Assembly: GCA_017621635.1 (NCBI GenBank)
Contig: JAGASU010000027.1
Location: forward strand, 1-45,522
From: Alphaproteobacteria bacterium
Lineage (GTDB): Bacteria; Pseudomonadota; Alphaproteobacteria; RF32; CAG-239
Direction: 5' to 3'
DNA: 45,522 nucleotides
Shown: in pieces, positions 1-17,629 of the stretch
Numbering within the stretch: the first letter of the stretch is position 1
Layout of the letters: each line of letters starts with the position of its first letter
Program-made: the position numbers and the translations under genes
Notes under the pieces: generated by a model
Told to the model about the DNA's origin: nothing
Databases searched by the model: none
What the model saw: the letters and a program-made list of their open reading frames with translations, nothing else

Positions 1-690
1 AAAGCATTAAAAGAAGCTGTTGACAGTGCATTTGACGCCTACCTTAAAGATACTAAAAACAGCCTGTATTGCATCGGCTCTGTTGTCGGCCCGCACCCTT
101 TCCCTACAATAGTCAGAGATTATCAGTCTGTCATCGGAATAGAAGCACGCACACAAATGCTGACTGAAACAGGAAAACTTCCCGATTATGTCATAGCCTG
201 TGTCGGCGGCGGCAGCAACGCCATCGGCATATTCTCCGGCTTTCTTGACGATTCTTCCGTTAATCTGTGCGGCGTTGAACCTTTGGGCAAAGGAACAAAA
301 CTGGGGGAGCACGCCGCTTCTATAACCTATGGAAGAGAAAGCATTATGCACGGCTTTCGCTCCCTTGTTCTTTTAGATGACAATAACAATCCCGCACCCG
401 TTTATTCTGTTGCCAGCGGTCTGGACTATCCTTCCGTCGGCCCCGAACACGCCTATTTAAACAGCACTAAACGTGTAAAATATGTCGTCATTACCGATAA
501 AGAATGTTTAGACAGCTTTTATCTCTTACCCAAAACAGAAGGAATTATTCCGGCGCTTGAAAGCTCTCATGCTCTGGCTTACGCCCTGAAATTAGCCAAA
601 CAATTGCCGGCTTCTCAACAAATATTGGTAAACCTCTCCGGCCGTGGAGATAAAGATATTGATTTTGTCGCTGAAAAATATGGTATCTGA
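1..690 (+). CDS. trpB: Tryptophan synthase beta chain (5'-truncated by window edge)
   Basis: Frame is open from base 1 (KALKEAVD...[21 protein letters not shown]). Motifs [33 protein letters not shown] and NLSGRGDKD. Confidence 0.95.
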
Positions 691-8941: not shown

Positions 8942-11056
8942 ATGGTCAATTGGAATGTGCACCGCAAAGAAATTCAATGGGGCGGTCGCAAATTAGTTTT
9001 AGAAACAGGTAAAATCGCAAAGCAGGCAACAGGTGCCGTTTATGCAAGTTATGGAAATACGGTCGTTGTTGCAACTGTTGTTGCTGCAAAAGAAGCAAAA
9101 GCTGATCAGGATTTTTTCCCTTTAACTGTTAACTATCAGGAAAAATATTATGCAACCGGCAAAATCCCCGGCGGCTTTATGAAACGTGAAGGCAAACCTT
9201 CCGAACGTGAAGTTTTGGTTTCCCGCCTTATTGACCGCCCGATTCGTCCGTTATTTCCTGACGCATTCAAAAATGAAGTTCAAATCGTCTGCACCACAAT
9301 TGCACACGATAAAAAGACAGACTCAGACATTTTAGCAATGATTGCCGCTTCTGCCGCATTAGCAGTTTCCGGCATTCCGTTTTTAGGTCCGATTGGCGCG
9401 GCCAAAGTCGGCTACATCAACGGAGAGTATGTTTTGAACCCGACAGTTGAAGAGTTAAAAAATTCCGAGTTGGAATTAACCGTTGCCGGAACAAGCGAAG
9501 GCGTTTTGATGGTTGAATCCGAAGCCAATGAACTCTCGGAAGAAACAATGTTAAACGCCGTTATGTTCGGTTTTGATAACTTCCAAAGCGTTATCAATAT
9601 GATAAACGAACTCAAAGCCGAAGCCGGCAAAGAGCCGTGGGAATCACCGGTATTTCCGCCGGAGTTTGATGAACTCTACAATCGTATTGAAAAAGAATTT
9701 CGCGCCAAATACGAAGAAGCTTTCAACGAAGTGGACAAACAAAAACGCTCAACCCGTTTAGGCGAATTAAGCGCTGAAGTTAATGCTACTATTGATCCGG
9801 AAAACGAGTTTGAAACCCGTTATGCTTTAGATGCTGTTGAAAAATTAATGCACTCGGTAATGCGTGAAAAAGTATTAACCACCGGCTCGCGTATTGACGG
9901 CCGTGACACCAAAACTGTCCGCCCGATTACCTGTGAAGTTAATTTATTGCCGACAACACACGGCTCTGCCCTGTTCACCCGCGGTGAAACGCAGGCTTTG
10001 GTTGTAACAACCTTAGGCACCGGTGAAGATTCACAAATCATTGACGGTTTAATGGACGAATCACGCCAAGACTTTATGTTAAACTATAACTTCCCGCCGT
10101 TCTCGGTTGGCGAATGTGGCAGATTAGGTTCTCCGGGGCGTCGTGAAATCGGTCACGGTAAACTTGCATGGCGTGCTATTCACCCGATGTTACCGAAAGA
10201 CAAGGCCGAATTTCCTTATACAATCCGCGTTGTTTCGGATATTATGGAATCAAACGGTTCTTCCTCAATGGCAACCGTATGCGGTTCTGTCTTGTCTTTG
10301 ATGGACGCCGGTGTTCCGTTGAAAAAGCCTGTTGCCGGTATTGCTATGGGTTTAATCAAAGAAGACGATGGCAGAGTTGCGATTTTGACTGATATCTTGG
10401 GCGATGAAGACCACCTTGGCGATATGGATTTCAAAGTTGCCGGAACAAAAGACGGCGTAACCGCTTTGCAAATGGATATTAAAATCACCTCCATCACCAA
10501 AGAGATTATGAAAAATGCTTTAGCTCAGGCACACGAGGGACGTATTCACATTTTGGGTGAAATGGCCAAAGCTTTGGCTGAACCTCGTCCGGAAGTTTCG
10601 CCGAACGCGCCGCGCATCATCACAATCAAAATTCCGGTAGACAAGATTCGTGAAGTCATCGGTACCGGTGGTAAGGTTATTCGTGAAATCATCGAAAAAA
10701 CCAACACCAAAATTGATATTGAAGATGACGGAACAGTCAATGTTGCAGCCGTCGACAAGAAAGACGCTGAAGCAGCGCTTGACATCATTAACGGTATCGT
10801 TGCTGTTCCTGAAGAAGGCAAAAACTACCACGGTGTCATCACCAAGATTATGGACTTTGGTGCTTTCGTCCGCTTCTTAGGCTCAACCGAAGGTTTGGTA
10901 CACATTTCTGAAATCAAAAACGAACGTATCGCTTCCGTAACTGATTTCTATAAAGAAGGTGATCAAATCTGGGTTAAATGTATGGGTACGGACAATCGCG
11001 GTAAAATCAGACTTTCCGCCAAACGTGTTAATCAGGAAACCGGTGAAGACGCTTAA
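8942..11056 (+). CDS. pnp: Polyribonucleotide nucleotidyltransferase (PNPase)
   Basis: [25 protein letters not shown] and DMDFKVAG motifs with KH and S1 domains. ATG at 8942 preferred because it follows AGGAAAGG. Confidence 0.98.
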
Positions 11057-11073
11057 GTCTTAAGCCTTTAAAC

Positions 11074-11112
11074 AAAAAAATAGTGTCTGTTTTAGCAGAC
11101 ACTATTTTTTTT
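11074..11112. terminator. Bidirectional terminator after pnp
   Basis: AAAAAAATAGTGTCTG...CAGACACTATTTTTTT hairpin. Confidence 0.85.
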
Positions 11113-11251
11113 ACTTTCCGTACAGCATACGCATGTATTCAAAAAGAACAATCGCACAAAGCAAAACCCCGACGAGCCAATACCCGCAACATAGCGCAAT
11201 AACTGCAACTAAGAGCAAAACAACAACTGCTCCGAAATACTTTTCAATCAT
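11111..11251 (-). CDS. 46-aa small membrane protein (below ORF-track cutoff)
   Basis: MIEKYFGAVVVLLLVAVIALCCGYWLVGVLLCAIVLFEYMRMLYGK*. Preceded by a TTGACA-17-TATCTT promoter (11319-11291) and ends at the pnp terminator. Confidence 0.6.
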   Translation of the reverse strand: MIEKYFGAVVVLLLVAVIALCCGYWLVGVLLCAIVLFEYMRMLYGK

Positions 11252-11348
11252 AACGCAAATTATTAAATTAATAATATTCTAAACGTCATCAAGATAGCAT
11301 TTAAAAGAAGCTCTGTCAATTATTTAGTTCGGAGTTTTATAAAATTTC

Positions 11349-11507
11349 GCTGATAAAAAACGATCCTTTTTTCTACACAACTATAATACCACAAAGTTAA
11401 AAATAAGTAAACTTAAAAATCATTTAAATACATAGACCTACTCCCAATCCTCTGTAAAACCGAAGCTCTCCTTACCTGCTGAAAAAAAAGGATCGTTTAT
11501 TTTCAGC
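11349..11507. promoter_or_regulatory. Candidate invertible promoter (inverton), currently facing away from the gene at 11522
   Basis: Inverted repeats at 11349-11372 and 11484-11507 (22/24 match; perfect 15-bp core AAACGATCCTTTTTT) enclose 111 bp containing a minus-strand TTTACT-17-TATTAT promoter. Confidence 0.7.
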
Positions 11508-11521
11508 AGAAAGGAAAACCC

Positions 11522-12205
11522 ATGAGCTATAAAATTTCACAACAAGATATTGACACCATAAAAACTAATGGTACACCCGTTGTCAGCGGAACAATGAGAT
11601 ATGTTATCCCGCTTGATAAATTGTCTAATAAATTTGATTTTATTAACCCCAAAGACGCCGGCACCGAATGGGGAAACCAAAGCCTAAAAGGTGACGGAAA
11701 CGATATTTTACTACTAAACGGCTTAACCCCCGAACAAATAGAAAAAATTGAAACCTATGCCGCCAAATTTGAGCAAGAAAAACAAAAACCAATCTCTGAT
11801 ATGCACTTAGTCGAATTAAAGCAATTTATGTCCTACCTGTCAAAAAACGGCTTTAATGATGTCTATTGTTCCGATAAACAATATATGGAAACATCATTAA
11901 CCGCAAATGATTCAAACAAGCGTATCGGCCTCTACGCCCGTAACAAAGACGCTGTCTGCCGCGCCGCAGTCCTTCCATTAGGCACGGTTTATAGTGACGG
12001 TCAAAAAGAGCAGATAGCAAATGTTGAAGGTGCTTTACTGATTGTTCCCGAATCCGGCCGTCAAGAAGACATTCGTATTACCAATGTCCCAGAAGATTAT
12101 GCACCCCTATCAGGCAAAGACCAAATAACCTCGTTGATTCACTTAAAAGCTGATGCGTCTAAACACCAAACAGCTCAGTTTGCAAAGCAAAATGACGGCA
12201 GATAA
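11522..12205 (+). CDS. Hypothetical protein downstream of the invertible segment
   Basis: 227-aa ORF with RBS AAAGGA and no signal peptide; ends ...KQNDGR; followed by a terminator. Confidence 0.8.
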   Translation: MSYKISQQDIDTIKTNGTPVVSGTMRYVIPLDKLSNKFDFINPKDAGTEWGNQSLKGDGNDILLLNGLTPEQIEKIETYAAKFEQEKQKPISDMHLVELKQFMSYLSKNGFNDVYCSDKQYMETSLTANDSNKRIGLYARNKDAVCRAAVLPLGTVYSDGQKEQIANVEGALLIVPESGRQEDIRITNVPEDYAPLSGKDQITSLIHLKADASKHQTAQFAKQNDGR

Positions 12206-12227
12206 AACAGCACTCACGTTAATATCA

Positions 12228-12256
12228 AAAAAGCGGCAGAGTTTCTGCCGCTTTTT
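12228..12256. terminator. Bidirectional terminator
   Basis: AAAAAGCGGCAGA-gtt-TCTGCCGCTTTTT between convergent genes. Confidence 0.85.
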
Positions 12257-12275
12257 ATTTCAATCATCGGTAAAA

Positions 12276-13355
12276 CTAAATTTCGCCGACATACATACCC
12301 ATATCAACCGCGGCACGAACATAAACGCTGTCTTTATTAAGCATTGTCGTTCCTTCGGCAACAACTTCTTCTAACGGATAAGTATCAATTTTATCACCAT
12401 TTAAGGCTACCATAACATCTGTCTTGCCTTCTTTAAGAAGCTCAACCGCCTTTGCACCGAAAGCACAAGCCAAAGCTCTGTCAAACGCTGTCGGATCACC
12501 GGCACGCTGAACGTGACCGAGTTTGGTAACGCGGGTCTGGAAACCGGAATATTTTTGGTTAATAGCTGCACTCAAATATTCGCCGATACCACCGTTAATC
12601 TTCTCACCGATAAGGTTTTTGCTATTAGAAACCATCTCACCCGATTCGGTATGAACCCCCTCGGAAACTACAATCACCGCATGATTTCTGCCACGAGCCT
12701 TAATGCTTTTTAATTTATTGATAATCCCGTCAATCGTATAAGGAATTTCAGGAACCAAGCATACATCGGCAAAACCGGCAACAGCTGAGTGCATAGCCAA
12801 ATGTCCGGCATCACGTCCCATAACTTCCAAAATCAAAGCGCGCTGATGCGAACGCGCTGTCTTCCACAAAGCGTCAACCGCTTCAACACAAACCTGACAA
12901 GCCGAATTAAAGCCGACCGAATATTGTGTAAGCGGCGTGTCGTTATCAATCGTCTTCGGAATACCGACCATCTTAACGCCCGCATTGCGGCAATAATTGC
13001 TGACAATGTTCATGCTGCCGTCACCACCGACAACAACGACGGCGTCCAACCCTAACTCAGCAACACCTTTGCCGAACCGTTTGGAAATTTCTGCCTGCGA
13101 TTCCATCTTAACCCCCTTATTTAAAGAGCCTAAATAAGAACCGGCAATCCGCGGCCATGGCGTGTCAACAAAATTGCTCTCGGTTAAAATCTCATAAGAC
13201 AGCGGGGCCTCGGTCAAGCCGTCTGTTCCGTTATGAATACCATAAACTTCCCATCCGTACTTTGCAGCGGAACTAACCACCGAAGAAACCACGGCATTTA
13301 AGCCGGCGCAATCGCCACCGCTTGTCAAAATACCGATTTTTTTAATTTTCGTCAT
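12276..13355 (-). CDS. pfkA: 6-phosphofructokinase (probably ATP-dependent)
   Basis: TSGGDCAGLN, GGDGS, PKTIDND, EVMGRDAG and LGHVQRAG motifs. Confidence 0.93.
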   Translation of the reverse strand: MTKIKKIGILTSGGDCAGLNAVVSSVVSSAAKYGWEVYGIHNGTDGLTEAPLSYEILTESNFVDTPWPRIAGSYLGSLNKGVKMESQAEISKRFGKGVAELGLDAVVVVGGDGSMNIVSNYCRNAGVKMVGIPKTIDNDTPLTQYSVGFNSACQVCVEAVDALWKTARSHQRALILEVMGRDAGHLAMHSAVAGFADVCLVPEIPYTIDGIINKLKSIKARGRNHAVIVVSEGVHTESGEMVSNSKNLIGEKINGGIGEYLSAAINQKYSGFQTRVTKLGHVQRAGDPTAFDRALACAFGAKAVELLKEGKTDVMVALNGDKIDTYPLEEVVAEGTTMLNKDSVYVRAAVDMGMYVGEI

Positions 13356-15075: not shown

Positions 15076-17025
15076 ATGCACGCAATACACTCGCTTATTG
15101 TTGACTTAACGCTGATTACAATTTATGCCGGACTAACCACCTTACTCTGCAAAAAACTAAAACAACCGATTGTTTTAGGCTACGTCTTAGCCGGTATTTT
15201 TGCCGGCCCCTATTTTAATTTTCTTCCGACCGTCAGCGACAAAGAAGACCTCACTTTGTGGGCGGATATCGGCGTTATTTTCCTTCTCTTCGGCTTAGGA
15301 CTTGAATTTAGTTTCAAAAAAATGCTAAACGTCGGCAAAGCTGCAATGATTACCGCCAACGCCAACATTATTTTTATGCTCTTTTTAGGCTACAACACCG
15401 GACTTTTACTCGGCTGGTCTACCATGGACAGTTTTTTCTTAGGCTCAATGATTTCTATGTCCTCCACCACCATCATCATCAAAACCTTTAATGAGCTTAA
15501 CATCAAAAAACAACGTTTCACTGACTTGGTGTTCGGCGTCCTAATTGTTGAAGATTTAATGGGAATCTTGCTCTTGGTTCTCCTCCCGACTATTGCCATG
15601 GGTTCCACCATTAACGGTACCGAGCTGGCCTTAAGTACGTTAAAACTCATATTTTTCTTAATTCTTTGTTTTATCACCGGCATTTATCTCGTCCCCACCT
15701 TTCTAAATAAAGTCGAAAAACTCTTAAGCGATGAAATGCTGTTGCTCATCACCATCAGCCTCTGCTTCGGTATGGTTCTTCTAGCCACTTCCTCAGGCTT
15801 TTCTTCTGCTTTGGGCGCATTCATTATGGGCTCGATTTTAGCAGAAACTTCCCTAATCGAACGTATAGAAAAGAATTTAAAACCGCTAAAAGACTTCTTT
15901 GGTGCCGTTTTCTTCGTTTCCGTCGGTATGATGGTTGACCCAGCCATGTTCATTACCTACGCCAAACCTATATGCATTATTACCATCATCGTCATTCTTG
16001 GTATGGTAACTTTCTCAACATTAGGCTTCACAGCCTCTGGAGAAACGTTAAAAACATCCGTTTATGGTGCATTTTCTTTAGCCCAAGTCGGCGAATTTGC
16101 TTTTATTATCGCCTCACTCGGTATGAGCTTAGGCGTTTTAAGCCCTAAAGTTTATCCGATAATCGTTGCCGTTTCGGTTATCACCACCTTTTTAACCCCG
16201 CTCATGATAAAATCAGCCGATCCGGCTTATAAATACCTTAACAAAAAACTTCCCGAATCTTGGCTGACATACATTAACAAATACGCCTCCTCCGCCACAA
16301 TAACCCATAACGAGGAACGCTTATGGAGCGCCTTATTTAAGAGTTATCTCTTGCGCTTAACGCTCTTTTCAATTATTCTTTACAGCATCATTGCTTTTTC
16401 AACAGCTATTCGCCCGTTTGTCCGCCAAATTATTCCCTACCGAATTTTAGCTAATATCCTGATGACTTTCTTAACATTTTTACTAATGTCCCCTTTCTTA
16501 AAAGCTCTCATCGGTTGGAATATCATCACTTCAAAATTCATAAAAACCAAACTGCACTGGTTGTTTCCCAAAAAACAAACCGATGAGCTTGAATTGGCAC
16601 GTACCTGCGAAAAAGAAAGCCACCATCCGGACACTGCAAATGCCCTCAAAACGGCTGCCTGTGCTGTTTTGGATGAAAAGACGCTACGCCTGCGCAACTT
16701 TTTCGCCGAAAAAAACCAAGTTTCCAGAATTTACTATAAACTCTGGATGGCCAAAAAAGCAAACCGCCTGCCGCTGATTATTTTAACCAGTTTCAGAATA
16801 CTTGTGTCATCTTTCTTCATCGTTACGGTTGTTCACAAATTTTTAAGCGAAAACCCGAAATTGACCTTTATCCTCTTACTGTTAACAATCTTTTCGGTTT
16901 CTCGATCCCGTTGGTTATTAGATCAATACTTAAAAATTGAAACGCAGTTCTTAAACAATCTCAAAGGACGCACCCCTTCTAACCCCGACAATGAAGAAAA
17001 AACGCCACCTACATCTCCGGCATAA
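15076..17025 (+). CDS. CPA2-family cation:proton antiporter
   Basis: Multiple TM helices; QPIVLGY, GLGLEFS, SMSSTTII, LIVED and AQVGEFAFII motifs. Confidence 0.9.
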   Translation: MHAIHSLIVDLTLITIYAGLTTLLCKKLKQPIVLGYVLAGIFAGPYFNFLPTVSDKEDLTLWADIGVIFLLFGLGLEFSFKKMLNVGKAAMITANANIIFMLFLGYNTGLLLGWSTMDSFFLGSMISMSSTTIIIKTFNELNIKKQRFTDLVFGVLIVEDLMGILLLVLLPTIAMGSTINGTELALSTLKLIFFLILCFITGIYLVPTFLNKVEKLLSDEMLLLITISLCFGMVLLATSSGFSSALGAFIMGSILAETSLIERIEKNLKPLKDFFGAVFFVSVGMMVDPAMFITYAKPICIITIIVILGMVTFSTLGFTASGETLKTSVYGAFSLAQVGEFAFIIASLGMSLGVLSPKVYPIIVAVSVITTFLTPLMIKSADPAYKYLNKKLPESWLTYINKYASSATITHNEERLWSALFKSYLLRLTLFSIILYSIIAFSTAIRPFVRQIIPYRILANILMTFLTFLLMSPFLKALIGWNIITSKFIKTKLHWLFPKKQTDELELARTCEKESHHPDTANALKTAACAVLDEKTLRLRNFFAEKNQVSRIYYKLWMAKKANRLPLIILTSFRILVSSFFIVTVVHKFLSENPKLTFILLLLTIFSVSRSRWLLDQYLKIETQFLNNLKGRTPSNPDNEEKTPPTSPA

Positions 17026-17629
17026 TTTCCGGCTCAAGTTTATGCTTGACGATATAACGGGAAAGAGTCAGTCTGTCAACCCGAAGCACACGCGCAATTT
17101 CTGATTTTGAAACATTGTCTACACGCATAGAGGTAATCTGTCGCTCTTTTCCGGCTAACTTTAAATGGCTGTTACGCCGTCCTTTGGGACGCCCCAAAAC
17201 CCGTCCCTCGGATTTTAGGCGCAGCAACGCCTCTTTTGTCCTCTGTGAAATAAGATTACGTTCAATCTCTGCCGACAATCCGAAAGCAAAAGCCAAAACC
17301 TTAGACTGAATATCCGTTCCCAAACGATAATTATCCTTAATCGTCCATACTTGAACCCCGTTTGACATGCAATAATGCAAAATACTCATAACCTGCAATA
17401 AATTACGCCCCAAACGTGAAAGCTCGGAAGCAATCAAAATATCGCCGTCCTTTAATTTTTTCAAAAGTTTTCCCAGTTTGCGCTTTTCCAGCTCTTTTGT
17501 CGCACTGATAGTTTCCATAATCCACTTTTCAATAATCATCTTATTATTAAAAGCATACGCTTTGATTTCAAAACGCTGATTTTCCGTTGTTTGCTTATCC
17601 GTACTAACTCTGATATATCCATAAATCAT
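17009..17629 (-). CDS. mpi: Mpi-family (master DNA invertase-like) serine recombinase
   Basis: Catalytic MIYGYIRVSTDKQT, SELSRLGR, the Mpi-typical WTIKDNYRLG.DIQSKVLAFAFGLSAEIERNLISQRTKEAL block and a C-terminal HTH. Confidence 0.85.
   Translation of the reverse strand: MIYGYIRVSTDKQTTENQRFEIKAYAFNNKMIIEKWIMETISATKELEKRKLGKLLKKLKDGDILIASELSRLGRNLLQVMSILHYCMSNGVQVWTIKDNYRLGTDIQSKVLAFAFGLSAEIERNLISQRTKEALLRLKSEGRVLGRPKGRRNSHLKLAGKERQITSMRVDNVSKSEIARVLRVDRLTLSRYIVKHKLEPEIMPEM

Follow-up and report, generated by a model that had tools for sequence, protein, structure and literature searches.

A putative Mpi-type invertible promoter upstream of an unannotated gene family in an uncultured gut alphaproteobacterium

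The DNA invertases Hin, Gin and Cin act on hix or gix sites, need a Fis-bound enhancer, and are encoded inside or beside the segment of about 1 kb that they turn. Master inversion of promoters by Mpi-type enzymes is textbook surface diversification in gut Bacteroides. According to papers that cite their 2003 work, Coyne et al. reportedly identified Mpi of Bacteroides fragilis as a master serine invertase with many invertible promoters. The Mpi repeat reads ARACGTTCGTN and the promoter segments of Bacteroides intestinalis measure 183 to 186 bp (PMC8375218); deletion of mpi locks all capsule promoters (PMC10403206). Inverton surveys made with PhaseFinder and DeepInverton report invertons in Proteobacteria and mention Alphaproteobacteria (PMC11602134). 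Excerpts of that survey name neither the lineage studied here, nor its sites, nor alphaproteobacterial Mpi-type regulons, and its supplementary tables may hold entries. A search of the literature returned no paper linking Mpi-type switches to gut Alphaproteobacteria, nor any account of the present lineage or its sites, and supplementary inverton lists may hold related entries. Here we analyze a stretch of 45,522 nucleotides (contig JAGASU010000027.1 of assembly GCA_017621635.1, called the window) from an uncultured gut alphaproteobacterium that encodes the same enzyme family. The element at 11347-11509 is very probably a promoter inverted by a serine recombinase, which serves as an ON/OFF phase switch for the adjacent gene of 227 amino acids (227-aa; 11522-12205, plus strand) and now stands in the OFF orientation.

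The element is framed by 24-nt inverted repeats (11349-11372 and 11484-11507) that are 92% complementary (22/24) and lie 111 nt apart. Both mismatches fall in the outer part of the arms, leaving a perfect stretch of 15 bp, AAACGATCCTTTTTT. A scan for inverted pairs of 24 nt, allowing up to two mismatches and gaps of 30 to 300 nt, found this single pair in the whole window and none in 20 dinucleotide-preserving shuffles. A preliminary description of this DNA had placed the repeats and their 15-bp core correctly, but each repeat proved to be only the core part of a 34-bp near-palindrome, CTGCTG-A8-CGATCC-T8-CAGCAG. The right site (11476-11509, core GGATCG at 11490-11495) is strong: it is the near-perfect palindrome CTGCTGAAAAAAAAGGATCGTTTATTTTCAGCAG, with 0 and 1 mismatches to the half-site consensus, and the dyad predicted within it was recovered as 17-nt arms at 11476-11492 and 11493-11509 (88%). 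The left site (11347-11380, core CGATCC at 11361-11366) is weak, joining a good outer half, TCGCTGATAAAAAACGA, with three mismatches to the consensus, to a degenerate inner half, TCCTTTTTTCTACACAA, with five mismatches in 14 positions. Both sites have the central dinucleotide AT (11363-11364 and 11492-11493), and their centers would delimit an invertible segment of 129 bp (11364-11492), in which an ORF (open reading frame) scan found no frame of 20 aa or more beyond chance. The match of AAACGATCCT to the Mpi consensus ARACGTTCGT was recounted as 8/10, the figure given before; it rises to 9/10 in sites with a central TT (for example on contig C1 and in the orthologue of the related genome G024), and such a 10-mer match is not significant alone.

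Between the two sites, a consensus scan listed the minus-strand promoter that had been proposed there, pointing away from the 227-aa gene (11411-11383). It is of the sigma-70 type and consists of a -35 element, TTTACT (11411-11406), a 17-nt spacer and an extended -10 element, TGgTATTAT (hexamer at 11388-11383), and it matches 9/12 consensus positions, with TG before the -10. By the coordinates, inversion between the site centers (11363/11364 and 11492/11493) would put the -10 at 11468-11473, 48 nt before the ATG, in line with the roughly 50 nt expected. The ribosome binding site (RBS) AAAGGA (11510-11515, plus strand), 6 nt before the ATG, lies outside the invertible segment, also as expected, and would stay fixed. 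By analogy with serine invertases, a recombinase dimer would bind each site and the two dimers would synapse; all four strands would undergo a 2-nt staggered cut centered on the AT, followed by rotation of one half through 180 degrees and religation of the ends. This turn of 129 bp would bring TTTACT-17-TGgTATTAT to 11445-11473 on the plus strand. The ON transcript would then begin about 40 nt ahead of the ATG, within the right site, and read through the fixed RBS. As output, expression of the 227-aa protein would be either on or off, with a fraction of the cells making it.

Upstream of the switch, pnp ends in a perfect 16-bp hairpin (11074-11111). Beyond the 227-aa gene, a hairpin with a perfect 13-bp stem and A/T runs on both sides (12228-12256) is likely a two-way terminator common to this gene and a convergent phosphofructokinase-like gene. 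Because of this predicted shared terminator we treat the 227-aa gene as a one-gene unit, and in the present state it appears to be insulated by hairpins on both sides.

As now oriented, the promoter reads toward a hydrophobic ORF of 46 aa on the minus strand (11111-11251), which lies 95 nt beyond the left site. The switch might therefore alternate between two products, this small membrane ORF and the 227-aa gene. The 46-aa ORF does look coding: compared by eye with its counterpart at locus L008, in the closest relative (genome G298), it shows two synonymous changes and one conservative change. It has, however, a fixed promoter-like site of its own with a perfect TTGACA (TTGACA-17-TGnTATCTT, 11319-11291), and L008 keeps both the ORF and that site though the switch is gone. 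The distal flank also differs in four other genomes carrying the gene (G024, G017, G248 and G202), where it holds an ABC transporter or a recombinase gene, so that the switch has the 227-aa family as its only constant partner. A two-product toggle is thus unlikely, and we judge the 46-aa ORF to be a bystander rather than a second output because it has its own promoter and persists in L008 without the switch. As the OFF-state promoter reads only toward this independently served ORF, we take the output to be the presence or absence of the 227-aa protein.

Both orientations of the segment were found among related genomes. Homologues of the 227-aa gene occur in 2/35 other genomes of the genus and in 7/283 genomes of the order (the window's genome, G000, included), which belong to 3 of 24 genera, and five of these seven have a two-site unit upstream. 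In G024, as in the window, the promoter points away from the gene. In G017 the segment is reverse-complemented, with TTTACA-17-TGgTATTAT directed at the gene; after this promoter come, in order, the site, the RBS and the ATG. Global alignment of the segments gave 49 on the same strand and 4.5 after reverse-complementing for G000 against G024, 7.5 and 48, respectively, for G000 against G017, and 7.5 and 57.5 for G024 against G017. Two homologues from other genera repeat the pattern: the promoter of G202, TTGCAT-17-TGgCATAAT, is directed toward the gene and that of G248 away from it, and their segments align better reverse-complemented (30) than on the same strand (12.5), with diverged site arms. 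Orthologous units thus differ by a reverse-complemented inner part, whereas outer half-sites, RBS and gene stay in place. The preliminary description had named the lack of any inverted relative as evidence that would count against a switch; G017 is such a relative, and the G202/G248 pair shows both states.

These comparisons also bear on the idea that the palindromes are operators of a regulator or RNA hairpins, with no rearrangement of the DNA. They do have the size of dimeric operators, and RNA of 11340-11521 folds better than all 200 shuffles (z = -4.39). That fold signal, however, is the inverted repeat itself, and no Rfam family matched at its gathering score. Neither the reverse-complemented segments of the orthologues nor the matching central dinucleotides described below are accounted for in this way, and we regard the idea as very improbable.

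An invertible promoter at this locus would be one of many in its genome (1.64 Mb in 135 contigs, 41% G+C, completeness 97.9%, contamination 6.0%). A loose half-site filter passed 69 34-mers, compared with 8 when the genome was shuffled. The core fits xG-WW-Cx in 35 of the 69, or 31 if a 141-bp overlap shared by contigs C20, C62 and C109 is counted once, and these sites occur in pairs. The genome scan for further inverted pairs suggested in the preliminary description thereby yielded at least 16 two-site units, the window's included. A stricter site pattern gave 22 forward matches in G000 and 14 in G298; it was present in 5/24 other genomes of the genus and in 0/16 outside it, and the reversed-pattern control had no match in all 41 genomes searched.

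Serine recombinases cut with a 2-nt stagger at the center of the site, and only matching overhangs are religated. The central dinucleotide, AT, TA or TT, was identical within 16/16 pairs, and the non-palindromic TT pairs were all inverted, TT against AA; both observations fit the requirement of religation after such a cut. The AT class comprises the window and units on contigs C10, C83, C95, C93 (at 3976) and C109; the TA class, units on C4 (two), C13, C22, C32, C41, C100 and C107; the TT class, units on C1 and C93 (at 11621). From center to center, the sites are 85 or 86 bp apart in 13/16 units and 95, 97 and 129 bp apart in the others, the last being the window. The prevailing distance corresponds to about eight helical turns, a very short stretch over which to synapse a pair of recombinase dimers. 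Every site contains A8/T8 tracts, which may provide intrinsic bending.

In 7/8 TA-class units, a promoter of the form TTGAC(A/T)-17-TACAAT (11/12) exists in only one orientation. It is split: the segment carries the -35, next to the strong site, and the -10 belongs to the fixed DNA, where it starts at the crossover and falls in the outer half of the weak site. Of these seven promoters, six are assembled OFF (L100 3289-3408, L104 1561-1680, L105 4312-4431, L106 1096-1214, L111 4174-4292 and L112 5215-5333) and one ON (L098 8071-8189, contig C4). The rest of the 15 units beyond the window lie at L097 3619-3747, L098 3411-3530, L099 5947-6066, L103 4721-4851, L108 1618-1737, L109 5067-5186, and L110 3976-4095 and 11621-11740. 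Genes flanking these sister switches encode two PMP-repeat autotransporters, a pilin of the TrbC/VirB2 type, one protein with ankyrin repeats and one with an FHA domain, a membrane protein weakly similar to PMT_2, and several secreted proteins that fall into no family.

Some arrangements depart from the simple pair. A third site (L099 6198-6231, core CGATCG) lies 165 bp past the C10 pair, where two alternative inversions are conceivable. A similar dyad pair with a different core, GGTTGG / CCAACC, spans 142 bp end to end at L107 4049-4190 and may be a fourth class or a relic. The overlap of C109, C20 and C62 (L103 4712-4852, L101 1-141 and L102 1-141, all identical) contains a whole switch within 141 bp. 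Two different continuations follow its strong site, and it is one of only six contig-end 141-mers shared among the 135 contigs. The branching of C109 into C20 or C62 could mean that strains vary here or that the site took part in a larger rearrangement; as a sign of inversion it was rejected, because all three contigs carry the switch in one orientation and only the flanks alternate.

A candidate enzyme is encoded 5.5 kb from the switch (17009-17629, minus strand). This 206-aa protein scored 308 bits against NCBIfam NF009949, the master DNA invertase Mpi family serine-type recombinase (cut-off 272), with residues 1-200 aligned to profile positions 1-200 of 203 and 307.4 bits in a six-frame search, and it contains a resolvase catalytic domain (PF00239, E = 2.5e-33, residues 2-143). 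It is one of four paralogues of about 200 aa in G000, encoded on C123 (the window), C47, C30 and C79 and scoring 307, 306, 274 and 254 bits, respectively. All four keep the motif YIRVSTDKQ, and three pass the family cut-off, which was also passed by 1/14 control genomes. The genome encodes, in addition, a fifth small recombinase that is only distantly related, and two large ones of the serine type. Two open frames gave weak matches to the Mpi profile (C47 10286-10852 and C101 23252-23704, with 45.9 and 68.4 bits), one of them immediately behind the C47 paralogue; both could represent recombinase genes that have degenerated or diverged.

In G248 and G202, an Mpi-like recombinase gene immediately adjoins the switch of the 227-aa family on its upstream side, divergently oriented and outside the segment (L116, about 2-544, minus strand; L117 2383-2979). 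Recombinase, switch and gene form a compact module there. The two recombinases are 65-68% identical to the window paralogue and 52-59% identical to the other three. The 17009 gene is favored because, of the four paralogues, it is the closest to these switch-adjoining enzymes, and by this comparison of sequences the chances that it serves the window switch appear about even. The earlier proposal that it drives the switch in trans was therefore right about the enzyme family, but with four paralogues present the assignment itself is only a preferred one.

The nearest relatives come from uncultured gut Alphaproteobacteria, which agrees with the alphaproteobacterial host claimed for this DNA; beyond these, the next-best recombinases belong to Bacteroidota and are 64-69% identical. 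A quick tree, rooted at the midpoint (n=84: the 80 best matches and the four G000 paralogues, with the distant C70 left out), placed the Bacteroidota enzymes in one tight clade among diverse alphaproteobacterial branches. This topology hints at recombinase exchange between gut phyla and names neither donor nor direction. Sites of the exact family were found within 8 kb of related recombinases at 0/80 loci, L008 included, with a filter that is too narrow to establish absence, as the arms vary between species.

The 227-aa protein, called the product of an orphan gene in the preliminary description, has 32 homologue clusters, none of them named, and thus belongs to a small conserved family. By eye it has no signal peptide or membrane segment and would be soluble. 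Among the strongly conserved motifs of the family are NPKDAGT..G.Q.LKGDGNDILLLNG and ANVEGAL...RITNVP.DY. The predicted structure is confident (mean predicted local distance difference test, pLDDT, 87.3), and a Foldseek search with it against the PDB gave 0/180 matches at E <= 0.001, with a best TM score of 0.19. A profile search of the PDB reached E = 0.76 at best, and one of Pfam E = 0.0067 (Helicase_IV_N, in 6/29 members, below any cut-off). NCBIfam, PADLOC and PHROGs gave no match, and the ESM Atlas gave no usable feature match, its structural hits having TM scores of at most 0.33 on the Atlas's own poor model. Pattern matches in JGI metagenome contigs (161) and in viral contigs (8) yielded none that was confirmed. 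We would guess at a costly cytoplasmic activity.

A search for sequencing runs that contain this DNA gave assembled Logan contigs and 0 entries recorded as RNA. Contigs from four metagenome runs were compared at the switch; the window may derive from X1-X3, which do not count as independent, and X4 represents a pig-gut relative. Record 4 of X1, record 14 of X2 and record 19 of X3 showed 0 differences from the window, and record 29 of X4 showed 37 differences and 4 gaps over 650 nt. Two features of these data were traced to other causes than inversion. The single joint at the switch, from 11509 back to 11477 (33 nt) in X1-X3, was the palindromic right site matching itself, and extra depth with loose ends over 11411-11511 came from contigs of other switches, such as those on C10 and C20. 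The deletion form known from L008 was absent from the contigs of the four runs.

Several observations weigh against a working switch. The contigs spanning the element had the window's OFF orientation in 4/4 runs, and no strand-changing joint was found in them, a weak argument in that contigs drop minor variants. Four other switches orthologous between G000 and G298 all have the same orientation in both, and the orientation differences among species could date from old events instead of ongoing switching. The degenerate inner half of the left site might slow or block recombination. L008, whose flanks are 91-97% identical to those of the window, lacks exactly 11362-12204 and retains only a half-site; the 227-aa locus is therefore dispensable and, in some lineages, might be a remnant undergoing decay. 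Finally, the promoter match alone is at chance level, with 3 promoter-like sites in 10900-12400 compared with 3.6 +/- 2.1 in shuffles. It gains the support it needs from conservation, since the -35/-10 stretch, with the adjoining degenerate half-site, is the best-conserved part of the segment in an alignment of G000, G024 and G017. The ON/OFF switch of the preliminary description is accordingly borne out by the two orientations across species but not by the metagenome contigs, all of which are OFF, and we infer ongoing inversion within one population.

A further reading treats the units of 120 to 160 bp as copies of a mobile element, similar to a miniature inverted-repeat transposable element, with 34-bp terminal repeats, that have spread among intergenic regions, happen to bear outward promoters and no longer flip. 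The copies are many, the inner segments of the TA class are 78-96% alike, and the inverted form was not seen in contigs. Moreover, at three loci a switch-plus-gene cassette carried by one of the genomes G000 and G298 is missing from the other (window 11362-12204 against L008 13426-13439; L123 1457-2154 against C100 8423-8454; L130 1408-2619 against C19 5286-5324), where the empty sites hold at most a half-site, and in G024 the 227-aa gene and its switch adjoin an ABC transporter gene instead of pnp and pfk. These cassettes do appear to behave as mobile accessory units. The gap in L008, however, starts within the left site and reaches as far as the gene's end, so that it does not coincide with the 163-bp unit, and there is no clean excision at C100 either, where the missing cassette is bounded by terminators and not by recombination sites. 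Each end is itself a dyad, which suits a dimer-binding recombination site and is unneeded for a transposon end, and the orthologous units differ by exact reverse-complementing of the inner part within fixed surroundings. Central dinucleotides agree in 16/16 pairs, the cores are similar to Mpi sites, and these genomes encode Mpi recombinases, next to the switch in two genera. A mobile element of this kind, whose promoters do not flip, is therefore improbable, and we retain an invertible promoter as the explanation of the locus.

The elements together may amount to an inversion network different in kind from the Bacteroides model, a reading that we offer tentatively and that, with its four parts taken jointly, is rather doubtful. 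In it, four Mpi paralogues would act on 34-bp dyads, and the incompatible AT, TA and TT classes would insulate more than 16 switches in a 1.6-Mb genome from one another. Most switches would be minimal loops of 85-86 bp with a fixed helical phase and no classical enhancer-dependent invertasome. In the TA class, the promoter would be divided, with its -35 on the segment and its -10 (TACAAT) across the crossover in the fixed flank. Each switch with its gene would be a mobile accessory cassette, the 227-aa gene sometimes traveling with its own recombinase. The 227-aa product would be a cytoplasmic protein of new fold, costly, as in defense, and hence phase-variable.

At least 16 switches in 1.64 Mb point to a strategy shared or exchanged among unrelated gut residents. 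The 34-bp dyad with its central WW offers a site model for finding phase-variable genes in the metagenome-assembled genomes of unculturable bacteria, and the 85-86-bp spacing, along with promoters assembled across the crossover, raises the question of how sites eight helical turns apart are synapsed. The switch also singles out a confidently modeled, unannotated family, for which part-time expression would predict a costly or antigenic function.

Among described systems, Mpi of Bacteroides fragilis is the closest. Both systems have a recombinase of the curated family NF009949; in both, many promoter segments are spread over the genome, with the one or few recombinases encoded away from the sites; the core appears to be related (ARACGTTCGTN, compared with AAACGATCCTT, AAACGTACCT and AAACGTTCCT here); and the genes beside the sister switches largely encode surface or secreted proteins. 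The differences concern the host, an alphaproteobacterium with TTGACA/TATAAT-type promoters, and the sites, where 34-bp dyads with A8/T8 tracts take the place of short 10-bp repeats. Three classes of central dinucleotide, four paralogous recombinases and split promoters also set the present system apart, and the target in the window is a soluble, non-surface protein and not a capsule locus. Its sites are mostly 85-86 bp apart from center to center (13/16), whereas segments of 183-186 bp are given for Bacteroides intestinalis (PMC8375218). With Hin, Gin and Cin (PMC3798978) it has in common a small serine recombinase with a C-terminal DNA-binding part and, with Hin, the inversion of a promoter. 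Dyad sites with A-tracts next to a 2-bp crossover are a further likeness. In contrast to the Hin/Gin-type cassette, the recombinase gene lies 5.5 kb from the window switch, and the segment of 129 bp (85-86 bp in the sisters) is free of genes and leaves no room for a classical enhancer loop. Like the catalogued invertons, finally, the element is a promoter flanked by inverted repeats next to a gene.

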